From Candidatus Fraserbacteria bacterium (GTDB taxonomy: Bacteria; Bipolaricaulota; Bipolaricaulia; RBG-16-55-9): a DNA stretch of 19,867 nucleotides. The translations under genes were made by a program, and so were the position numbers. Location of the stretch: positions 1 through 19,867 of the forward strand of contig JBBIPG010000042.1 in NCBI GenBank assembly GCA_037442925.1, given 5' to 3'. The notes under the pieces were generated by a model. That model was not told the DNA's origin and searched no databases. It was given only the letters and a program-made list of their open reading frames with translations. Each line of letters starts with the position of its first letter. Position 1 is the first letter of the stretch. This document shows positions 1 through 19,867 of the stretch, piece after piece.

Positions 1-120
1 TGGCTCAATCGCTACCGGAGGTTGAAGGTGCGCTATGAGCGGCGTGCGGAGATCCATCAGGCGTTCCTCTCGGTAGGCTGTGCGCTCATCGTCTGGCACT
101 ATGTCCAACGGTTTTGTTAG
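1..120 (+). CDS. IS5-family transposase, C-terminal fragment (5' part lies outside the window)
   Basis: Frame 1 reads WLNRYRRLKVRYERRAEIHQAFLSVGCALIVWHYVQRFC*, matching the WLxxxRRLxxRYERxAxxxxAFL C-terminal signature of IS5-family DDE transposases. Not in the ORF track. Confidence 0.88.
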   Translation, partial: WLNRYRRLKVRYERRAEIHQAFLSVGCALIVWHYVQRFC

Positions 121-126
121 AGGCTC
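1..126 (+). mobile_element. Right end of an IS5-family insertion sequence; probable TAA target duplication at 127-129
   Basis: The transposase stop overlaps TTTTGTTAGAGGCTC (reverse complement GAGCCTCTAACAAAA), followed by TAA, a TA/TNA-type target typical of IS5-family subgroups. The left end is not visible. Confidence 0.72.
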
Positions 127-310
127 TAAACCTGAGCTTGAGGCCAAGCATCACGGTGCCTATGTGGCGATCGAAGTCAACAGCGGTGCCTACTTTGTGG
201 GCCAAACTACCGAAGAAGCCTTCCAGCAAGCTGAAAGAGCCTTCCCCAAGAAGGCCTTCTGCTTAATTCGCATTGGGTATAAGGCCGTACACAAGCTGAA
301 GCACTCCTGA
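127..310 (+). pseudogene. 3' remnant of a DUF5678-like small protein interrupted by the IS
   Basis: KPELEAKHHGAYVAIEVNSGAYFVGQTTEEAFQQAERAFPKKAFCLIRIG starts right at the IS end. The G-x-YVAI...EEA...A...P pattern resembles DUF5678-type proteins. The N-terminus of track ORF 80..310 is IS sequence. Confidence 0.65.
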
Positions 311-398
311 CGGTTGACTACCCGCAAGGGCGGGTCAAACTGGAGCGGAGCGGTGGACCTCAAAGGTCAAGGTAAAAAGCCCGGAGTGGACCCTTGCG

Positions 399-436
399 TG
401 CTTTTCTGTCAACGGATGGGGAGCGGATGAACGGAT
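399..436 (+). repeat. Cassette-boundary repeat R1
   Basis: TGCTTTTCTGTCAACGGATGGGGAGCGGATGAACGGAT; 405-435 is identical over 31 bp to 4052-4082. Confidence 0.93.
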
Positions 437-516
437 TCGTCTTACCCTGGTGGATTCTTGAAGCTACAATGTCGTGATTGAAGGGATAGCTATGGATCTC
501 GTTACATGATGCCTGG

Positions 517-1449
517 CTAGACATTGGCAGCAATCCATTCCGCCGTGATCCTCACAATCTCTTCAAAGGCTTCACGAAAGCTTGCACCAGGGTAACCGAC
601 AAGTTCGGGAATCATGATCTGGTTCCATCCGAAGGCAAGCAGTGAATGTTCCACTACATCGCGTAGGCGGGAACTCAACAAGTAGGAACTGTTGCTCAAG
701 TCAATGATCTCATGCTCTAAAGTCAATACGTGTGAGACGAAGGCAAAGATCGAATGTAGATACCGCCATCTAGGACCGGGGGAGTTGATCCCCATAAGAT
801 TCCGCCACTTGTTGGCATCCAGGTAATACGATCCAAGAGGAGCTCCTTTCGTGTTGTAAGTACGAATGAGCTGAGCCTCAGCCAGCTCATCTGCGGCACG
901 CCTTATGGCGCGCGGCGCGTAAGCAGTTGCATAAGCGAGAGCCTTGACTGTTGCTGATCTCTCCTCCAATCCAAGGAGCACACTCAGCAGATCCGCTTTG
1001 ATACCGACTCCAAGTCCTAATCGCATGCGCAACATCAAGCTAGATGGCTCTAACAGCGGAGCAGTTGGTTCTGTTCCTTTCTTCGGACGAGCAGGTGAAC
1101 TGGGTGCGGAAGCCGGGAGTGACTTCCAGCGAAAATCTTTACCTTCTCTTAGAGCAAGATACACAAACTCTTTGAGCTTCTGCTGGGCGAGTTCTGGATA
1201 TGCTTTGGAAACGTTTTTCATCCGTTGCACGCTCAGGAGTCTTGAACGGTGTATGGCCCACCAAGAAAGGACATCCCAGAGTCGATGTTCTTTCTCACGG
1301 AGTATTAGGGAAAGCAATACCAGAGCTTCCGGATCTATAATTGCAGTAGCCTTGCGCTTTGAGGAGGCAAACGAACCAACGGCATCCCATTGCCTCCATG
1401 CAGCTTCAGTTGCTACCTCTTGAAGGTGTTGCATCACCCTAGTCAACAT
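517..1449 (-). CDS. Hypothetical protein (310 aa) with a central winged-HTH-like segment; putative antitoxin/regulator partner of the nucleotidyltransferase
   Basis: ATG at 1449 (MLTRVMQH) overlaps the upstream gene's stop (1439-1441), so it is a more plausible start than 1554. ATVKALAYATAYAPRAIRRAADELAEAQLI looks like an HTH. Confidence 0.68.
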   Translation of the reverse strand: MLTRVMQHLQEVATEAAWRQWDAVGSFASSKRKATAIIDPEALVLLSLILREKEHRLWDVLSWWAIHRSRLLSVQRMKNVSKAYPELAQQKLKEFVYLALREGKDFRWKSLPASAPSSPARPKKGTEPTAPLLEPSSLMLRMRLGLGVGIKADLLSVLLGLEERSATVKALAYATAYAPRAIRRAADELAEAQLIRTYNTKGAPLGSYYLDANKWRNLMGINSPGPRWRYLHSIFAFVSHVLTLEHEIIDLSNSSYLLSSRLRDVVEHSLLAFGWNQIMIPELVGYPGASFREAFEEIVRITAEWIAANV

Positions 1450-2047
1450 TGGTGTGGGACCGATCAAGATCTTGGCGAAGCCGATCCAAAACCTGATCCA
1501 GTATTTGCCCGAAACCCTCAGACATGTCTTGGGACCGGACCCAGCGTGCAGCATCTTCGACCTCTTGCTGAGACGGGTGAAGGGCGCGCAGGTCCTGATA
1601 ATGAATCTCTGTGGGAGCGCTATCTACTGCCGCATACAGCTTAAAGAAGATCAGATCGTAACGCGACACGATTCCTACGTGAAGCCCTCTGTACCGCCTC
1701 CACTCCAATCGATCCTCTAGACTAGGGGGTAGCCCAGAACGCCATTGCGATCCTGCGACAGCGTTCATCCAGTCTTCGGGGAGCCCGAAATCTCTTGCGA
1801 CTCTTTTGATGGCTTGGGTAAGAGATTCTGGCAAAGGATTGGGAGGGCGCAGTGTCACTTTGGGTTCGGTTACAGGTTGTGAACCTATCGCAAGGATATC
1901 CACATCTTTCGTGGTTCGATGTACGATCCCCAGCAGGTTGAGAGCGGTGCCCCCCAAGACCACAATGCCCACTTCCTCACGCTGGGATTCCAAGATTTCG
2001 CCCACAGCATTCAGGGCTTTTTCAATATCTAATGGTTCTTCGCTCAT
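1439..2047 (-). CDS. Nucleotidyltransferase, DUF6036/AbiEii-like (putative type IV TA toxin)
   Basis: VVLGGTAL...HRTTKDVDIL motif (GG..A, RxTxDxD) and a C-terminal LIFFKLYAA...HYQDL segment, as in Pol-beta-superfamily AbiEii-like NTases. Confidence 0.82.
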   Translation of the reverse strand: MSEEPLDIEKALNAVGEILESQREEVGIVVLGGTALNLLGIVHRTTKDVDILAIGSQPVTEPKVTLRPPNPLPESLTQAIKRVARDFGLPEDWMNAVAGSQWRSGLPPSLEDRLEWRRYRGLHVGIVSRYDLIFFKLYAAVDSAPTEIHYQDLRALHPSQQEVEDAARWVRSQDMSEGFGQILDQVLDRLRQDLDRSHTNVD

Positions 2048-2069
2048 CGTTCATCGCCTTGGATATAGT

Positions 2070-2124
2070 GACTATTATAGTCCATATGGAAGACTATTAT
2101 AGTCCTACTTGGGAGCTAAGTCAA
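2070..2124 (-). promoter_or_regulatory. Sigma70-type promoter overlapped by two palindromic operators
   Basis: Minus strand TTGACT (2124-2119)-17 bp-TATAAT (2101-2096). Palindrome GACTAT-T-ATAGTC occurs identically at 2070-2082 and 2092-2104; the second copy contains the -10. Confidence 0.85.
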
Positions 2125-2138
2125 GATCTACTCACGGC

Positions 2139-2164
2139 ACGGATCGGGTAACAGATTAGCGGAT
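2139..2164 (+). repeat. Partial boundary repeat R2a (right portion only)
   Basis: ACGGATCGGGTAACAGATTAGCGGAT matches 2268-2293 at 24/26. Confidence 0.85.
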
Positions 2165-2166
2165 GA

Positions 2167-2293
2167 GGGTATGGCTATTGGGTTGGCTGCGCTCATTGGG
2201 GCTTGGCGTAAATTGCGGACTCATCCACGTCGGTGAAGAGCTTCCTTCTCTCTTTGCTTATCTGTCAACGGATCGGGGAACGGATTAGCGGAT
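2167..2293 (+). repeat. ~127-bp direct repeat, copy 1 (mini-ORF 3' half + pyrimidine tract + boundary repeat R2b at 2255-2293)
   Basis: Aligns by eye with 3075-3202 with about 16 differences (~87% identity). Confidence 0.95.
2171..2236 (+). pseudogene. Truncated copy of the small membrane peptide gene (MAIGLAALIGAWRKLRTHPRR)
   Basis: Homologous to the 3' part of 3034-3144; homology begins 2 nt after R2a. Confidence 0.5.
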
Positions 2294-2310
2294 AGAAGAC
2301 ATCGCCTGCG

Positions 2311-2337
2311 ATCTGCTAATCTGTTACGCGATTGTGC
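2311..2337 (-). repeat. Inverted copy of the repeat's right portion
   Basis: The reverse complement of 2311-2332 matches 2143-2164 at 20/22, with weaker pairing further out. Confidence 0.8.
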
Positions 2338-2407
2338 ATTTGAGTCAAGGCAAGGGCAGAAATTCCCAACGGTACATGTTCTGTTTCCTTTACCCTACCT
2401 CATCGAC

Positions 2408-2437
2408 TTGCAAGATTGTAAGAGCAGATGGTAAACT
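2408..2437 (+). promoter_or_regulatory. Putative promoter of hicB-hicA
   Basis: TTGCAA-18 bp-TAAACT with an extended -10 TG; purine-rich RBS region before ATG 2474. Confidence 0.5.
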
Positions 2438-2473
2438 GACTATGCTTTCACCTAGAGGAGATGAAAGGCGCCT

Positions 2474-2767
2474 ATGTCTGTCAAGAGCATTACGTTCAGA
2501 GTGGGGATCGTCATAGAACCAGATGACGATCAATACCACGCTTATTGCCCCGCATTAGAGGGACTTCATGTAAGCGGCACTACAGAAGCAGAAGCTTTAC
2601 AACATGCAAGAGATGCTGTTATGGCCTACCTGCGCTCTTTAATTAAGCATGGCGACCCCATTCCTTTAGGGATCATATCAGAAGTTGAGACATATGAAGG
2701 CTCGAAGCCGCATCCTTCGCGACATATACATCAGCATATTGAGGAGCTGGCTCTTGCGACTACATGA
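2474..2767 (+). CDS. hicB: HicB-family antitoxin (short, no obvious C-terminal DNA-binding domain)
   Basis: IEPDDDQYHAYCPALEGLHVSGTTEAEALQHARDAV...LIKHGDPIP is the typical HicB partial RNase H fold; ATGA overlap with the next gene. Confidence 0.92.
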   Translation: MSVKSITFRVGIVIEPDDDQYHAYCPALEGLHVSGTTEAEALQHARDAVMAYLRSLIKHGDPIPLGIISEVETYEGSKPHPSRHIHQHIEELALATT

Positions 2768-3021
2768 GCTATCCTCGGCATGTCTGGAATCAGCTTAAAA
2801 ACCTCACTGCAAAAGACTTAGCCAATGCCTTAGAGAAAGACGGATGGATACGTGATGAAAAGCAGGGTGCCGTGCAAGTCTATCGCCACCCTGACGGTAA
2901 GCGAGTCACAATCCATTTTCACCCAGGCAAGACCTATGGGGCTCGTTTGCTCAAGCAACTTCTCAAGGACATCGGCTGGTCCATTGCTGACATGCAACGG
3001 TTGAAGCTCGTTAGACGCTAA
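2764..3021 (+). CDS. hicA: HicA-family toxin (atypical, lacks the GSH motif)
   Basis: AKDLANALEKDGW...YRHPDGKRVTIHFHPGKTYGARLLKQLLKDIGW is a dsRBD-like HicA pattern; coupled to hicB. Confidence 0.87.
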   Translation: MSYPRHVWNQLKNLTAKDLANALEKDGWIRDEKQGAVQVYRHPDGKRVTIHFHPGKTYGARLLKQLLKDIGWSIADMQRLKLVRR

Positions 3022-3033
3022 GAAAGAATAGGC

Positions 3034-3144
3034 ATGAACAGTGTGACCTTACTACTGATTCTTGTGTTCTCGGCGGGTATGGCTATTGGGTTGGCTGCGC
3101 TCATTTGGGCTTGGCTCAAACTGCGAACTCATCCCCGTCGGTGA
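3034..3144 (+). CDS. Putative small single-pass membrane peptide (36 aa)
   Basis: MNSVTLLLILVFSAGMAIGLAALIWAWLKLRTHPRR*: long hydrophobic run plus basic tail. ATG lies 13 nt after the hicA stop. Below the ORF-track size cutoff. Confidence 0.6.
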   Translation: MNSVTLLLILVFSAGMAIGLAALIWAWLKLRTHPRR

Positions 3145-3202
3145 AGGTCTTGCTTCTCTTTTTTGCTTGTCTGTCAACGGATGGAGCAGCGGATTAGCGG
3201 AT
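3075..3202 (+). repeat. ~128-bp direct repeat, copy 2 (includes boundary repeat R3 at 3164-3202)
   Basis: Aligns with 2167-2293. R3 = TGCTTGTCTGTCAACGGATGGAGCAGCGGATTAGCGGAT. Confidence 0.95.
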
Positions 3203-3230
3203 GAGGCGCTGGTAATTTATAATCGGAGCG

Positions 3231-3476
3231 ATGGTTATGGACATCAAGAAACAGCTTGAAGCGTTTGATAGCAACTTCGTCTGGCTGGATGAGAATTATG
3301 ACGAGCTGACACACAGATACGCGGAACAATATGTAGCTGTTCTGCACCAGAAAGTAGTCGCGCATGACGCTGACTTAGATCGTTTGATGGAAAAGCTGAG
3401 GGCTAAATACCCTGACGAGGTCAACGCTATTGCAGTGGAATATGTGACGAAACAGAAGTTCCAGATGGTGTTATGA
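3231..3476 (+). CDS. DUF5678-family small protein
   Basis: WLDENYDELTHRYAEQYVAVLHQKVVAHDADLDRLMEKLRAKYP. TATAAT at 3218-3223 lies just upstream. Start is 3231 or 3237. ATGA overlap with the protease gene. Confidence 0.82.
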   Translation: MVMDIKKQLEAFDSNFVWLDENYDELTHRYAEQYVAVLHQKVVAHDADLDRLMEKLRAKYPDEVNAIAVEYVTKQKFQMVL

Positions 3477-3919
3477 GGATCGAAGGCCGCTGGAGCACAG
3501 CCGGCACTCCCTATGTGATTGCCTTTCTTGTCTGCCCAAAGCTCAACCTCCAAGAAAGTATAGCCTTCCTCGTTGACACCGGTGCATCCGCCACCGTGAT
3601 CATGGACAACGATGCTCACAGACTGAAGATCGATTATGCCGCGCTCAAGAGGCGTAAGGAGAAGACCACGGGAGTCGGGGGCTCCGTGGATACCTACATT
3701 CTGCCAGACGTAAGACTTTACTTCCGCACTGCTGATGGCAAGCTACACGAAGAGCGGATGGGCGACATTTCGGTGCTCAAGCATGCGATCAAGAACGAGG
3801 AAGAGGCAGCCCGAATCAGGAAGCTGCCCAGCCTATTAGGACGAGATTTCCTAAACCGCTACAAAGCTATGCTGGACAGGGCCAGTGACCGATTGACCAT
3901 CACAGATGAATCTACTTGA
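3473..3919 (+). CDS. Retropepsin-like (clan AA) aspartic protease
   Basis: FLVDTGAS catalytic motif, GVGG flap and SLLGRDFL C-terminal motif. Confidence 0.92.
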   Translation: MRIEGRWSTAGTPYVIAFLVCPKLNLQESIAFLVDTGASATVIMDNDAHRLKIDYAALKRRKEKTTGVGGSVDTYILPDVRLYFRTADGKLHEERMGDISVLKHAIKNEEEAARIRKLPSLLGRDFLNRYKAMLDRASDRLTITDEST

Positions 3920-3937
3920 CCTTGCCCCGTAAGCATG

Positions 3938-3969
3938 TAGCCAGTTCTGGCTATAGCCAAAGTTGGCTA
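3938..3969. promoter_or_regulatory. Two abutting 16-bp palindromes (operator-like)
   Basis: TAGCCAG-TT-CTGGCTA (3938-3953) and TAGCCAA-AG-TTGGCTA (3954-3969), both with perfect arms. Function is inferred only. Confidence 0.55.
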
Positions 3970-3990
3970 GACCGTTTTTGCATCTTCATG

Positions 3991-4046
3991 CCCTATTCAT
4001 CCTGCTTTGGGAGGACTGGAATAGGGACCGGTCCTCTCTCTTTTTT
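3991..4046 (+). terminator. Possible stem-loop/terminator closing the protease cassette
   Basis: CCCTATTC...GAATAGGG stem with inner TCCT/AGGA, followed by CTCTCTCTTTTTT. Confidence 0.4.
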
Positions 4047-4082
4047 GCTTGTCTGTCAACGGATGGGGAGCGGATGAACGGA
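4046..4082 (+). repeat. Cassette-boundary repeat R4
   Basis: TGCTTGTCTGTCAACGGATGGGGAGCGGATGAACGGA; 36/37 identical to 399-435. Confidence 0.93.
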
Positions 4083-4121
4083 GACTAAGCCTTTGGTTCA
4101 ATCGCCCGAGGACGCCTGACC

Positions 4122-4150
4122 TTGCGATCCAAAGCATTTTTCACTACGCT
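4122..4150 (+). promoter_or_regulatory. Putative promoter of the rplI operon
   Basis: TTGCGA-17 bp-TACGCT; RBS AAGGGGG at 4171-4177. Confidence 0.5.
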
Positions 4151-4183
4151 AATCGAGATTTGCACCAACCAAGGGGGATGCAC

Positions 4184-4648
4184 ATGCACGTTTTGTTGAC
4201 GCAAACCGTTGAGAAACTCGGCGAAGCTGGGGATGTCGTGAAGGTCGCTCCCGGCTACGCCCGCAATTATCTTTTACCCAAGGGACTGGCCGTAGAGCCT
4301 ACGCCTCATAACATCGAGCGATTCAAGGTAACCCGTGAAAAGCGCGCGACGGAAATGAAGGAGCGTGAAGAGTACGCCCGCACCCTCAAGCAAAGGCTCG
4401 ATGGCACCGTGCTTACGTTCTATCGCAAGGCCCATGACCAGAAACTCTATAGCTCCGTACGCCCGGAGGAGATCGCTGCTCAGCTCTCTGAACAATTCCA
4501 GGCCGAGATTGAGAAGGGACGCGTGCGGATGGATGCACCCATCGAGGCGCTGGGCCGCCATGCTGTGAAGATCGAGCTCTACAAAGACATCGCCGCCGAG
4601 ATCCGCGTGGAGGTCCTCGAAGAATCGAAATCCTCACAAACGGAATGA
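4184..4648 (+). CDS. rplI: 50S ribosomal protein L9
   Basis: MHVLLTQTVEKLGEAGDVVKVAPGYARNYLLPKGLA is the L9 N-terminal signature. Start reassigned from 4049 to 4184 on RBS and motif grounds. Confidence 0.97.
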   Translation: MHVLLTQTVEKLGEAGDVVKVAPGYARNYLLPKGLAVEPTPHNIERFKVTREKRATEMKEREEYARTLKQRLDGTVLTFYRKAHDQKLYSSVRPEEIAAQLSEQFQAEIEKGRVRMDAPIEALGRHAVKIELYKDIAAEIRVEVLEESKSSQTE

Positions 4649-5742
4649 ACGTCCGTCTGGTGCTGATCATACTCAGCTTGACCCTAGGGGGAATCAATCT
4701 CTCAATTCCCGTAGATGCGTTCGTTCCTTCGGGGTTTCTGTCTCTTAAAGAGTCTCAATCCCCCTTGGGTTGGGGAGGCGTCTATCATCGTGTCGATGGC
4801 GTCACACGCAGCGGTTGGGTGACTGTCCAGTACATCACGCTCGATCCGAGTCGCTGGCGCCCCGCGATTGCTCATTCCTCTACAGGAATCGGGACGGTCA
4901 GCTCTGTGGCCGCTATGGTTCGCGAGACAAATGCCGTAGCAGGGATCAACGCGAACTTCTTCGATCCTCCCACGGGGCTGCCTATTGGGTTCCTTCTCAA
5001 AGACGGACAAGTGCTCAACACTCCCTACTTGAATCGCGCGACGTTGGCCATCAGTTTCTTCGGTGAGCTTCACTTCGTAAACCCCCACATTTCGCTCACC
5101 CTTCGAACGCCTCACGGCACAATCACCGTGGACGGGATCAATCGCCCTCTGTCTCGCGACGCGCTCATCGTCTACACGCCTGAGTACGCTGGCCCCAGGG
5201 GCCTTTGGAACAATGCGCGTGTCGTCGCCATCCAAGGAGACCAGGTCAAGTGGATCGGCTCGGAGCGCAGCGTCCGCTTCACAGAGCGAGGCATGTACTG
5301 GCTCGCTGCTACAGGAAGTGCGAAGAATCGCCTGGCGAATCTCCTGCCCGCAGAGCGCGTCAAGCTCGACTATGCCATGAGCCCTGAACTCTATCTACTT
5401 CGAGATGCCTTCCAAGCAGGGCCGATGCTTCTTCGTGAGGGACAGATTGCTCTTGTTTACGAAGGTTTTCAAGCGGATATGCTCCAGAAACCGGCAGCCC
5501 GCAGTGCTTTAGCGCGCACCCGCGATGGAACGCTGATTTTGCTCATCGTAACCCGAGGCAATGGATCCGTGGGGATGAACTTATACGAACTTGCGCAATT
5601 TCTGCGCACGCTGGGTGCCGTTGATGCAATGGCTCTAGACGGTGGAGGCTCCAGTTCTTTGGTCTTTCAGGACGGAACCCGCCTGCGAACCCTCGGAAGC
5701 AGCCGAGAGATTCCCGTCAGCTTGGTCTTCTTGCGCCGGTAG
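4645..5742 (+). CDS. Exported phosphodiester glycosidase (NAGPA-like) family protein
   Basis: Signal-like N-terminus; AGINANFF, AGPMLL, ARSAL and AMALDGGGSS motifs. Confidence 0.88.
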   Translation: MNVRLVLIILSLTLGGINLSIPVDAFVPSGFLSLKESQSPLGWGGVYHRVDGVTRSGWVTVQYITLDPSRWRPAIAHSSTGIGTVSSVAAMVRETNAVAGINANFFDPPTGLPIGFLLKDGQVLNTPYLNRATLAISFFGELHFVNPHISLTLRTPHGTITVDGINRPLSRDALIVYTPEYAGPRGLWNNARVVAIQGDQVKWIGSERSVRFTERGMYWLAATGSAKNRLANLLPAERVKLDYAMSPELYLLRDAFQAGPMLLREGQIALVYEGFQADMLQKPAARSALARTRDGTLILLIVTRGNGSVGMNLYELAQFLRTLGAVDAMALDGGGSSSLVFQDGTRLRTLGSSREIPVSLVFLRR

Positions 5743-5763
5743 AGTTCAGCTGAGCGACGTATT

Positions 5764-7362
5764 ATGTTACAGCTGCGAGATCTTCTTCAGAGTGTGCTTC
5801 TCATCGGTTCACTCACGGCACTGAGTCGTGTGTTAGGCTTAGTGCGCGATACGATCATTGCACACCACTTCGGAGCCAGTGCCGACTACGACGCTTTCCT
5901 CATCGCGTTCTTGATTCCGCATCTCTTGAGAATGCTTCTCGCGGAAGGGGCTCTTAGCACGGCCCTCATCCCTCTGCTGTCCGAGTATCTGGTAAAGGGA
6001 CGGGAACTCGCCACTCGCTTTACCAACAATGTGCTCACGCAGGCATTGATCGTCTTGCCGATCATCGTGGTACTGGGCGTGGGACTTTCCCCCTATTATG
6101 TGCCATTTCTCGCAGATGGGTTCAACACCGCCAAGCAGGCGCTCACCGTTCAGCTTGTGACATTCACGTTCCCCTTCATCATGCTGGTTGGCATCTCCGC
6201 CATCTTCATGGGAGTGCTCAATAGTCATGAGAAATTCTTCGCTCCGGCTTTCGCTCCCGTCTTGTTCAACGTGGGAATGATCATCGGAGCTGTGTGGATC
6301 GCTCCGCACGTACATCCTCCGATATTTGGCTTAGCGTTAGGGGTGCTCCTAGGCGGGCTAGGACAGCTTCTCTTTCAGCTTCCCTTCTTGCGCGGGCAGC
6401 TACAGTATCGCTTCATCTGGGATCCCAAAGACGAGAGCGTTCGGAGATTGCTCACTCTGATGATGCCAACGGTCATTGGGTTGGCCGTCGTGGAATTGAA
6501 CGTGATGGTCGACAGCAAACTGGCCTCGCGCTTGGGGGATGGCTCCATTGCCGCCTTGCAGTACGCCGTACGACTATTCCAATTGCCCTTGGGAGTCTTT
6601 GCCGTCGCGTTGGCCACGGCGCTCTTGCCACGCTTGAGCCGACAAGCCGACCCGGCGAACCGCCAAGAGTTCATCGCTTCCCTGCAACAGGGGCTACGAC
6701 TGGCAGCCTTCATTCTACTTCCAGCGACGGCCGGACTCCTCGTGCTGGGTGGGCCGATCATTCAATTGCTCTTCGAGCATGGACGCTTTAGCCCAGAAGA
6801 TACGGCGCGCACTCTGTATGCTTTGCGCTTCTTGGCTCTGGGGCTTGTTGGCTATGGGATGACGTACCTTCTCACACGCGCCTTCTATGCTCTGCAAGAT
6901 ACGCGTACTCCCGTGGCGATCAGCGCCGTTACGGTAGGACTCAACATCGCCCTGGATCTGCTCTTGATTGGTCCGATGGGAATCGGGGGATTGGCACTGG
7001 CCACTTCCCTCGCTGGACTCATCCAGATGGTGCTGCTCACGCTCCTGCTGCAGGGCCGATTAGGGGCTCCCATCGTTCGCTCAGTTACTCCACATGTGGT
7101 CAAGATGGCTCTTGCTGCTCTGCTCATGAGCATGTGCGTTTACGTACTCGATCTGGTATTGGCCTCTGTGAACGTGAACGAGTTCGTCCGGGTCGGCCTG
7201 GGCGTGACCGTGGGATTATTCAGCTATGGATTGCTGTCATTGTGGGGACATCTGCTGCCAGAAATGAGACTCGTAAGGCCACGTTCTGAGACGCCTCCGT
7301 TTGGACGAAAGTCGCTCGCTCTGGCACGATTCAAGCAGCACTTCATTGGCCGGGCAGAATGA
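5764..7362 (+). CDS. murJ: Lipid II flippase MurJ (MviN)
   Basis: SRVLGLVRD, DAFLIAFLIPHLLRMLLAEGALS, RLFQLPLGVF, RAFYALQDTRTP; multiple TM helices. Confidence 0.97.
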   Translation: MLQLRDLLQSVLLIGSLTALSRVLGLVRDTIIAHHFGASADYDAFLIAFLIPHLLRMLLAEGALSTALIPLLSEYLVKGRELATRFTNNVLTQALIVLPIIVVLGVGLSPYYVPFLADGFNTAKQALTVQLVTFTFPFIMLVGISAIFMGVLNSHEKFFAPAFAPVLFNVGMIIGAVWIAPHVHPPIFGLALGVLLGGLGQLLFQLPFLRGQLQYRFIWDPKDESVRRLLTLMMPTVIGLAVVELNVMVDSKLASRLGDGSIAALQYAVRLFQLPLGVFAVALATALLPRLSRQADPANRQEFIASLQQGLRLAAFILLPATAGLLVLGGPIIQLLFEHGRFSPEDTARTLYALRFLALGLVGYGMTYLLTRAFYALQDTRTPVAISAVTVGLNIALDLLLIGPMGIGGLALATSLAGLIQMVLLTLLLQGRLGAPIVRSVTPHVVKMALAALLMSMCVYVLDLVLASVNVNEFVRVGLGVTVGLFSYGLLSLWGHLLPEMRLVRPRSETPPFGRKSLALARFKQHFIGRAE

Positions 7363-18660: not shown

Positions 18661-19867
18661 ATGATCCGAACCAATCTCTTATTTGTGCTTCTATGCGCGA
18701 TCGGCAGTGTTGTGACCGTCCCCGCATGGGCTCAGCTCCCCGAACTTGCGCAGACTCCTTCACTGGAAATACCCGATGAAGCTCAAAGCCCGTCCTATGA
18801 TGTCTCAGGCCAAGTGAACTGGCTGTTGCGCTACGGTTTGGGTGATCCTCAGGGTCTGGCGCAAAAGACGTACTCCTCTGGCCTCTTCTTCTCCCAAGCC
18901 ATCACACTGGATGCAGACATCTCCGTGCCCGTCGAACGCCCCATCCCCGGGCTTCTCTCACTCACGGCCCACCTCGATAACGAACAGCCCGAATTCCTTC
19001 AGTCCTTGCGCATGCTCTGGCAAGCGCAGGGCTGGAGTGCGGAGTTTGGTGATTTCCCCATGGGCCGACCTGGCAGTCTCTTTGCCTCTTCCTCACGCTT
19101 ACTCAAGGGGTTTCGAGTCAATTGGCAACTCAATGAGCGAGTCACCGTAAGTGGCATCTACTCTCAAGTCTCCGGCATCCTTCAGTCTCGCACCTTTCGC
19201 GGGAACACCGTAGAAGAAAGGGTCACCTTTGCTTTTCATCCGGAGAATCAGCCCTTTCTCGACCAGCCCTATCTGAAGAACCTGCGCGGCTTGGAGTATT
19301 TTGCACTTGGGGACACCTTCGTGGAAGGCTTTACGCGTGTGAAGCTCTCCTTCAGCTCTGAGTCCCGGCTGCAAGAACTCCTCTTAAGCTACGACCTGGG
19401 ATATTTATATGAAGCCATCCGAGAGGACCCGGAGCGCGAGCTGGACTCAAGCGTGTACACCGTGATTCCCACAGGAGAGGAGTATTTTCTGGCGCTACGC
19501 AATGAATTTAAGACTCTGCTCCGCGATCGACTCCGCGAGTACATCGACGATTACAACCAAGACCAGCTCCTCACAGGCGATGAACGCAAAGAGTATCCCT
19601 TAAGTGAAGGCACCGAATACGAGCAGGCCTTTCTCGAGCGTCTGAGCGACCTCGTGAAGCTCACCATCGACTCCCTCACTCTCACACCCAAAGAGAGCCA
19701 GCATCAGCGTTTCTATGCGCTGGGATACGAAGACATTCAAGAAGACTCCGTGAAGATCGAGGTCAAAGTCGACGACGAATTCACCGATATTCTCGATCCC
19801 AAACTGGCAGACTATGAATACAAAGTCTATGCCGACATCGGGATCATCGAATTGGACTTCCCCGAGG
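18661..19867 (+). CDS. Large secreted or outer-membrane protein, 5' part (runs off the window end)
   Basis: Open frame of >400 codons, absent from the track: MIRTNLLFVLLCAIGSVVTVPAWA-QLPE (signal peptide), then amphipathic beta-strand-like segments (WSAEFGDF...RLLKGFRVNW...SGIYSQVSG...RTFRG). In-frame ATG also at 18655. Confidence 0.85.
   Translation, partial: MIRTNLLFVLLCAIGSVVTVPAWAQLPELAQTPSLEIPDEAQSPSYDVSGQVNWLLRYGLGDPQGLAQKTYSSGLFFSQAITLDADISVPVERPIPGLLSLTAHLDNEQPEFLQSLRMLWQAQGWSAEFGDFPMGRPGSLFASSSRLLKGFRVNWQLNERVTVSGIYSQVSGILQSRTFRGNTVEERVTFAFHPENQPFLDQPYLKNLRGLEYFALGDTFVEGFTRVKLSFSSESRLQELLLSYDLGYLYEAIREDPERELDSSVYTVIPTGEEYFLALRNEFKTLLRDRLREYIDDYNQDQLLTGDERKEYPLSEGTEYEQAFLERLSDLVKLTIDSLTLTPKESQHQRFYALGYEDIQEDSVKIEVKVDDEFTDILDPKLADYEYKVYADIGIIELDFPE

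Follow-up and report, generated by a model that had tools for sequence, protein, structure and literature searches.

Single arms of a dispersed palindrome family linked to GxxExxY nuclease genes delimit toxin-antitoxin-like modules upstream of rplI in a Candidatus Fraserbacteria genome

The locus upstream of rplI

The stretch of DNA analyzed here (19,867 nt, referred to as the window) is the entire contig C42 of a Candidatus Fraserbacteria genome (G000; 2.07 Mb, 86 contigs, 94% complete). Upstream of rplI, the first core gene, it carries a series of small modules resembling toxin-antitoxin (TA) systems that are delimited by a repeat, four copies of which (R1, R2b, R3 and R4) lie on the same strand with spacings of 1856, 909 and 882 nt, the last one at the border with the core genes (Table 1). 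A preliminary description of this DNA had taken the repeat for the recombination or insertion site of an undescribed cassette-capture system; the four copies and the border position of the last one are confirmed. The repeats of the window are single arms of a family of palindromes of about 80 bp that bracket, in relatives, one clade of GxxExxY nuclease genes. We consider, with about even confidence, that modules upstream of rplI were gained, duplicated, deleted and reordered by crossover at these relic nuclease-cassette arms and the flanks duplicated with them.

Table 1. Features of the window upstream of and including rplI (positions in nt)
Feature	Positions	Strand	Basis or remark
Right end of an IS5-family insertion sequence (transposase C-terminus 1–120, terminal repeat to 126)	1–126	+	NF033580, E 5e-7; end motif
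DUF5678-like gene, 3′ part, interrupted by IS5	128–310	+	Weak Pfam match, E 0.0014
R1: T-rich flank and single arm (arm 405–436)	399–436	+	Spacer type x; does not fold, z +1.06
Partner of the nucleotidyltransferase, uncharacterized, 345 residues	517–1554	-	Open reading frame; likely true start 1449 (310 residues)
DUF6036/AbiEii-like nucleotidyltransferase	1439–2047	-	Pfam
Sigma70-like promoter of the nucleotidyltransferase module	2096–2124	-	11/12 match
Fifth arm, 5′-truncated	2139–2166	+	HMM, 19.3 bits
Truncated second copy of the 3′ end of the membrane-peptide gene, with T-rich tail	2167–2254	+	Copy of 3075–3163, 89 nt, 89%
R2b arm (2261–2293), then decayed inverted arm (2311–2332)	2255–2332	+	Folds weakly or partly, z -3.06
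hicB-hicA (HicB-like and HicA)	2474–3021	+	Pfam
36-residue membrane-peptide gene	3034–3144	+	Not in the preliminary description; inside the stretch duplicated at R2b/R3
R3	3164–3202	+	Does not fold, z -0.27
DUF5678 and clan AA aspartic protease pair	3231–3919	+	Pfam (aspartyl protease)
Hairpin with T-tract resembling an intrinsic terminator, immediately before R4	4009–4048	+	Sequence
R4	4046–4082	+	Spacer type x; does not fold, z -1.48
rplI, first core gene	4187–4648	+	Pfam

The repeats are arms of a dispersed palindrome

The pattern TGTCAACGGAT-N4-12-CGGAT matches the window four times, whereas 0.00 matches are expected from 200 shuffles of its sequence. R1 and R4, whose near-identity had been noticed, differ by a single base at position 404. 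The likeness of R2b to R3 had also been seen and proves to be longer, as it continues for 89 nt upstream and reaches 128 nt in total at 87.5% identity; moreover, R3 and R4 have a block of 30 bp in common (3155–3184 is identical to 4037–4066). The original inventory of four copies holds but is incomplete, lacking the 5′-truncated fifth arm and the decayed inverted arm that follows R2b, with which R2b forms the relic of a full palindrome. The hexamer TGCTTN, on the other hand, had to be removed from the repeat: it precedes 4 of the 34 full-length arms, all four of them in the window, and thus represents a locus-specific T-rich flank. A search of positions 1–4700 against Rfam (E ≤ 1) gave no match.

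Arms were searched in the genome with a hidden Markov model (HMM) built from 23 seed arms, using a threshold of at least 14 bits and the reversed genome as a control (best score 10.1 bits). This search yielded 40 arms in 27 sites distributed over 20 loci, and 27 exact copies of the 12-nt core occur across G000. The repeat is therefore not private to the array but is dispersed genome-wide and is often located beside housekeeping genes, for instance between lgt and arsR, rnhA and mcm, or paaD and paaB, and before lexA. The 11 sites examined are full palindromes of 71–101 bp, each made of two inward-facing arms, with the ends TCTGTCAAC...GTTGACAGA; all four that were folded are stable hairpins by z-score (-6.5 to -8.7). 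An arm consists of two to three short words, inverted in the full copies, and its outer 13 bp are nearly invariant while the spacers vary. The variable distance of 5–12 nt between box 1 and box 2 would suit the geometry of a hairpin better than that of a fixed array on double-stranded DNA, such as the protein-binding iterons that had been suggested. No target-site duplication is seen at 8 of the 11 full elements, and the remaining 3 show only offset matches of 2–3 nt. No transposase lies beside the arms of G000, nor was one found among the 39 of 125 proteins adjoining arms in the scanned species genomes that were picked by eye for a Pfam scan; the ends of IS5 differ from the arm.

Within the phylum, the exact pattern is present in 5 of 184 genomes, all of the same family and including G000; it is absent from the same-genus relative G001 (80% complete), and viral contigs contained 0 copies. 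At sites of the related genome G006 that are orthologous to the full palindromes of G000 at lgt/arsR and rnhA/mcm, only the outer 13–14 bp are present (L062:4822, L063:4289), which indicates vertical inheritance of an element whose interior is lost first. A mini-palindrome of 43 bp is found elsewhere (L060:4402–4444). A full arm is also present in frame in two heavy-metal P-type ATPase genes of G000 (C19:29929 and C20:27740; L036:3030–3062 and L037:7741–7773), where it directly follows the DKTGT motif and reads TDVSVNGS(M/V)NGL(M/T)DD/E, the third paralog having the ordinary TDVIPLNGYSADE. This suggests that the arm is able to overwrite look-alike coding sequence. On contig C22 of G000 (375–3135; L038), a ParE-AbrB pair and the lexA-recA operon have arms and palindromes around them. 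Tandem arrays with a period of 54–110 bp, made up of amplified arms or palindromes and free of cargo, occur in some Chloroflexota (L088, L114, L139, L077, L141, L286).

One could suppose that a TA island was already in place, that complete palindromes inserted independently between its modules, one in each gap, and that each copy then lost one arm. The element has indeed inserted in many intergenic gaps, and R2b retains its decayed second arm; but all five arms of the window point in the same direction, the spacer of R1 and R4 occurs in no other arm of the HMM list, and R2b, R3 and R4 share an upstream flank beyond chance (scores of 36.5, 15 and 9, the 95th percentile of 551 between-locus pairs being 4). 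Independent insertion is already disfavored by these shared flanks and appears improbable. The upstream flank of R1 has only 6 nt in common with the other units of the window; the sole part common to all four units is the arm itself.

Association with GxxExxY nuclease genes

Species genomes were scanned for arms, which gave at least 112 stretches, 80 of them with DNA and chiefly from Chloroflexota; 8 of the 80 were left out (4 overlaps, 3 duplicates of loci from relatives and 1 isolated match), and results given for individual loci (L numbers) concern the matches listed. A GxxExxY gene lies between arms in L109, L121 (also L268) and L129, and L146 holds a gapped GxxExxY copy as judged by likeness; L109, L121, L129 and L146 represent two independent sites. 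Within the family of G000 itself, genome G004 possesses a GxxExxY gene preceded by four arms and followed by three (L180). A gene of the TIGR04256 family is present in 19 of 30 arm-bearing genomes.

The association is restricted to one part of the family. In a tree of 33 GxxExxY rows (36 were fetched, and 3 with fewer than 95 aligned residues, one of them arm-bearing, were omitted), a branch of 11 rows with 99/99 support holds all 9 arm-bearing rows. An arm is found beside the gene in 8 of 10 distinct rows inside this clade, compared with 0 of 22 outside it, and the 22 outside rows carry other repeated words; the arms of another clade have the words CACAGA/CACGAA. Since related rows are not independent, the tree demonstrates clustering of the arm with the clade and not co-evolution. 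A sequence search of the PDB with the GxxExxY nuclease returned 0 matches.

Flank duplications and array architecture

In the window as well as at six other loci, cargo lies between direct duplications that comprise an upstream flank plus the arm and measure approximately 50–250 bp: 128 bp in the window, 51–87 bp on contig C69 of G000, 63–107 bp in G006, 144 bp in L105 (around a BrnT pair), 154–234 bp in L084, 214 bp (97%) in L284 and 248 bp (95.6%) in L130, where the duplicate consists of a gene 3′ end and the arm. L130/L131 (3169–6755) contains, between its 248-bp duplicates, a TumE-type TA system and an MvaI/BcnI restriction-modification pair, with a third copy of 70 bp between the two modules.

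Contig C42 overlaps C69 by 140 nt (positions 19728–19867 of the window, 98.6%); judging from this overlap the two are likely one piece, which would place a second array about 23 kb downstream. On C69 and in the orthologous array of G006, every arm is preceded by a copy of the same terminator hairpin. The cargo in G000 is a BrnT-CopG and a PIN pair, whereas G006 holds Uma2, a fragment of a protease and a pair of membrane peptides; such different content in a relative counts in favor of the variable array that had been proposed. All module boundaries of the three arrays have an arm, although flanks from different arrays are unrelated to one another, as is the flank of R1 to the other flanks of the window. 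No arm was found before rplI in any of the 8 family genomes examined (80–90% complete, one of the contigs being short). Direct duplications of 43–73 bp also flank PIN modules that have no arms (G000 C10:653–1580, C17:914–1988 and C5:25230–30092).

Variation between strains

Assembled contigs from 4 of the 8 listed runs (X1–X4) were compared with the window; such contigs show presence and not absence. The pieces obtained from runs X3 and X4 were of low depth and nearly identical and were not used as evidence, and X1 is the possible source run of G000 and hence not independent. The strain of run X2 is approximately 92–95% identical to the window, and its arrangement upstream of rplI differs, in agreement with the predicted variability of module content and order. 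Its 21,175-nt contig reads, in window positions, the DUF5678-protease pair (3230–3913), 44 other nt, the membrane peptide (3033–3157) and then 4041–5972 with the R4-type arm and rplI, so that the join 3157/4041 falls in the 30 nt over which R3 and R4 are identical and hence inside a repeat unit. Elsewhere in X2, 1.36 kb of different sequence lies ahead of the spacer and terminator that precede R4; the first DUF5678 gene is free of IS5, other, non-IS sequence being present there (loose end at 127), and it is found at twice the depth with about 310 extra nt before R1. No depth was obtained over bins 2401–3000 (hicBA), which is weak evidence when taken alone. In run X1, a contig of 2,063 nt at genome depth contains an R4-like unit, 712 nt and an R3-like unit; it is absent from the G000 bin and likely represents more of the array or, less probably, a piece of another organism. 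The loose-end motifs of the strain contigs were not found in the G000 bin. The combination of flank types and arm types in differing ways is the mark of crossovers inside the units, and the module order of X2 likely differs because the repeats act as recombination points and not as the sites of a dedicated integron-like enzyme.

The latter possibility deserves consideration in its own right. A protein of the GxxExxY clade or an unknown recombinase would cut and join at a fixed point within TCTGTCAAC, moving circles of arm plus module in the manner of an integron integrase. Such a system is consistent with the near invariance of the outer 13 bp next to variable spacers, with the covariation of arm and nuclease clade, with further array members likely lying outside the bin (run X1) and, in the single case of X2, with an arm type that remains attached to the downstream DNA although the flank ahead of it has changed, which is the pattern predicted for crossover in box 1 or upstream of it. 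However, duplications of 50–250 bp with variable ends are unlike the product of a fixed crossover, homologs of the nucleotidyltransferase module are free of arms (0 of 21), copies on viral contigs are lacking and no recombinase was found beside any examined arm; moreover, no rejoining chemistry is known for PD-(D/E)XK folds. Taken together, we regard a dedicated enzyme of this kind as rather unlikely. The capture site put forward originally is thus supported as far as variable modules and a junction inside the repeat are concerned, whereas the repeat is not private to an array and no recombinase is tied to it.

Association with toxin-antitoxin genes

For the genome-wide comparison, eight Pfam families were retained as the TA set; they gave 54 matches in G000, of which 2 PIN matches in long open reading frames were removed, leaving 52 matches in 41 loci. 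Six of the 20 arm loci lie within 500 bp of a TA gene, compared with 6.3% of 926 gaps (P 0.001), and the enrichment persists when the window is subtracted (5 of 19 loci, P 0.005), so that the proposed link to TA genes is supported. Fourteen of the 20 arm loci have no TA-family gene within 1 kb. Among the matches listed, TA or defense genes neighbor the arms in L069, L084, L093, L099/L108, L105 and L130, and most of the other neighbors look like housekeeping genes by eye. Given the dispersal of the arms, the 14 arm loci without TA genes and the 34 of 41 TA loci without an arm, the alternative of a scattered repeat with no accessory link, named in the preliminary description, applies by half: the repeat is scattered, but a link to TA genes is not absent.

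The arm does not travel as a part of the modules. Homologs of the nucleotidyltransferase module carry an arm at 0 of 21 metagenome loci (about 45% identical, many on short contigs), and the membrane-peptide pair of G001 is likewise arm-free; the idea that the arm is a module part was rejected for both modules, and it follows that the arm belongs to the site.

Crossover between repeats or passenger arms

The crossover reading can be laid out as a series of steps, beginning with the identity of the arms, their dispersal and their link to one nuclease clade described above. A palindrome would have landed behind the terminator at a time when the nuclease was present and would then have lost one arm. 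The cargo lies between direct duplications of upstream flank plus arm, and flanks and arm types are mosaic. Each gain may have arisen from one crossover with DNA that contained the site as well; homologous recombination of the host on 30–250 bp would be the simplest route, and cleavage of the arm by the nuclease a possible trigger. TA addiction would retain modules that excision between repeats would otherwise remove, while ordinary deletions and the IS5 insertion would erode the array. A much broader proposal, which we put forward only tentatively, is that GxxExxY nucleases and the palindromes of their clade constitute an undescribed mobile system across Bipolaricaulota and Chloroflexota that captures cargo besides spreading empty hairpins, and in which a cut in the arm primes the recombination that stacks TA and restriction modules into shuffling, integrase-free, integron-like arrays.

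Several observations weigh against a role of the arms in crossover. G000 itself, at 94% completeness, has no GxxExxY gene by PF13366 and none by tblastn at E ≤ 1, so that any action of the nuclease here would be past or in trans. An arm lies within 750 bp of only 7 of the 41 TA loci, leaving 34 without one, and the null model of the enrichment leaves uncontrolled a preference for accessory hot spots that arms and TA genes may share. The duplications vary in length and end point; direct flank duplications occur at 3 of 34 arm-free and 3 of 7 arm-near TA loci (Fisher P 0.051), and their presence at arm-free loci means that duplications can arise by this route even without an arm. The second junction of X2, from the protease end to the peptide gene, is not at an arm, no circular single-arm junction for the cassettes of the window was present in the assembled contigs, and in G004 the corresponding position before rplI is occupied by another TA pair, which lacks arms.

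These points lend themselves to an explanation in which the arms are passengers: a terminator-adjacent accessory hot spot would have grown by insertions and deletions of the duplication type, the arm being copied along without any role. The arm-free TA loci with flank duplications on C10, C17 and C5, the arm-free pair of G004, the missing nuclease gene of G000, and the finding that most arms have housekeeping genes on both sides or even form part of the reading frame of P-type ATPase genes are all in line with it. What it leaves unaccounted for is an enrichment beside TA genes of about five-fold, an arm at every module boundary of three arrays despite unrelated flanks, the arm being the only part common to all four units, and one X2 junction inside a unit. 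We therefore consider passenger arms possible but doubtful, and retain crossover at the arms and their duplicated flanks as our working interpretation.

Comparison with known systems

According to PMC4889954, integron arrays and degenerate integron arrays (CALINs) consist of tandem, TA-rich accessory modules between related sites of the same orientation and vary between strains. The window resembles them in its tandem TA-like modules, its same-orientation sites and its strain-variable content. It differs from integrons in that its boundaries are not folded attC sites, no intact IntI is present, the modules can have their own promoter and either orientation, and 50–250 bp of flank are duplicated with the site. 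The cores of attC sites read RYYYAAC and GTTRRRY. That the repeat is not an attC site, as first described, is borne out, since R1, R3 and R4 do not fold, all four copies read TGTCAAC and a crude attC scan was empty. No IntI (TIGR02249) scored over the cut-off in G000, where the DNA left of the IS5 break is unassembled, and none of the 5 matches to tyrosine recombinases (PF00589) lies on an arm-bearing contig stretch. On contig C52 (1357–1734; L249), an IntI-like gene whose middle is deleted is divergent from an AbrB-PIN pair, with no attC-like site near it by the crude scan. A CALIN with atypical attC sites could invoke this relic, together with the AAC/GTT near the ends of the full palindrome and its unpaired internal loop; yet three of the four boundaries are single non-folding arms, the ends do not fit RYYYAAC, the scan for attC-like sites is empty, the relic belongs to a different contig and has no arm in its vicinity, and one module is inverted with its own promoter. 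We judge this origin highly improbable.

A second comparison concerns repetitive extragenic palindromes (REPs), their doublets (REPINs) and the associated RAYT genes. In PMC5581495 and PMC3733652, these are hairpin doublets scattered through extragenic DNA and also placed around one small gene of the nuclease type, which presumably spreads them, and the terminal tag of REPs is given as GTAG or CGTC (PMC3733652). The arm family shares the dispersal as hairpin doublets, over-represented and extragenic in G000, the placement around one small nuclease-type gene and a patchy copy number among relatives. Unlike REPs, the arm is built of three ACGGAT boxes and has no GTAG or CGTC tag; the gene flanked in relatives is a PD-(D/E)XK GxxExxY protein and not a Y1/HUH RAYT, and in the window single arms delimit gene cargo. 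Neither a RAYT (PF01797) nor four-helix-bundle genes were found in G000. The family is thus REPIN-like in dispersal and cassette-array-like in outcome, and is a member of neither group. Compared with the GxxExxY cassettes of G004 and Chloroflexota, the arm is the same and many copies are gene-less, but the window has no nuclease gene and its direct single arms surround unrelated cargo.

Tandem genomic islets integrate with duplication of a gene 3′ end, and pdif modules contain paired 28-bp XerC/XerD sites. The window is similar to both in that its cargo lies between direct copies of a target including a gene end or terminator; it differs in that no integrase travels with the cargo and the duplication length varies, and the arm sites are unlike the XerC/XerD layout as judged by eye. 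Rpn/YhgA proteins, a family other than GxxExxY, have a PD-(D/E)XK-type fold too. In PMC5350276 and bioRxiv 10.1101/2023.05.02.539157, these nucleases were first proposed to promote horizontal transfer and later reported as TA defense, a caution that nuclease-driven mobility may be indirect.

Neither the design of GxxExxY gene and palindrome nor such arm-bounded TA arrays were found in the literature searched (mostly open-access papers, supplements excluded), and the GxxExxY partner nuclease of this widespread repeat family is without described function in these papers. The new aspect is the arm as a boundary of shuffling TA and defense cargo, which has comparative support as well as a real counter-case. 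The window connects the stacking of chromosomal TA and defense modules outside integrons with a repeat family of wide distribution. An active arm would represent a new route by which defense islands assemble; with a passive arm, the locus would remain a clear example of accessory DNA shaped by relic mobile palindromes. Direct test material is at hand in the arm sequence, the nuclease clade that matches it (L180) and the before/after arrangements that two strains provide naturally.

Genes and modules of the window

The module identities assigned earlier are confirmed by Pfam for the nucleotidyltransferase, hicBA, the DUF5678-protease pair and rplI. The exception is the winged helix-turn-helix assignment of the nucleotidyltransferase partner, which has no Pfam, NCBIfam or PADLOC family and for which a helix-turn-helix is indicated only by weak ESM-Atlas leads (scores of 0.78–0.82). 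A partner of about 310 residues follows the DUF6036 nucleotidyltransferase in 15 of 21 homologous metagenome loci (L198–L213), the toxin-like gene coming first. The module likely has its own promoter, facing against the repeats. The DUF5678-like gene upstream of R1 is also confirmed, albeit weakly. The IS5 end is identical to ends on contigs C78 and C10 of G000; this element is the cause of the contig break and is unrelated to the repeat. Hence the statement that the window has no recombinase has to be amended by a transposase stub, while it remains correct that none is tied to the repeat. Downstream of R4, likeness to G001 resumes at position 4109, 27 nt past the repeat.

The 36-residue membrane-peptide gene is, from its homologs, the orphan second gene of a mobile module for two peptides, the first gene being absent at this locus; a view of it as a core target gene was discarded for this reason. 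Its homolog in G001, 86% identical, is paired with a 57-residue gene. Paralogous pairs are present in G000 on C45 (17679–17976) and C5; no Pfam family matches the pair, which is possibly a small TA-like module. Similar tiny membrane-protein pairs (57–66 plus about 36 residues) recur in accessory spots, also in L053 and L314 (7045–7331).

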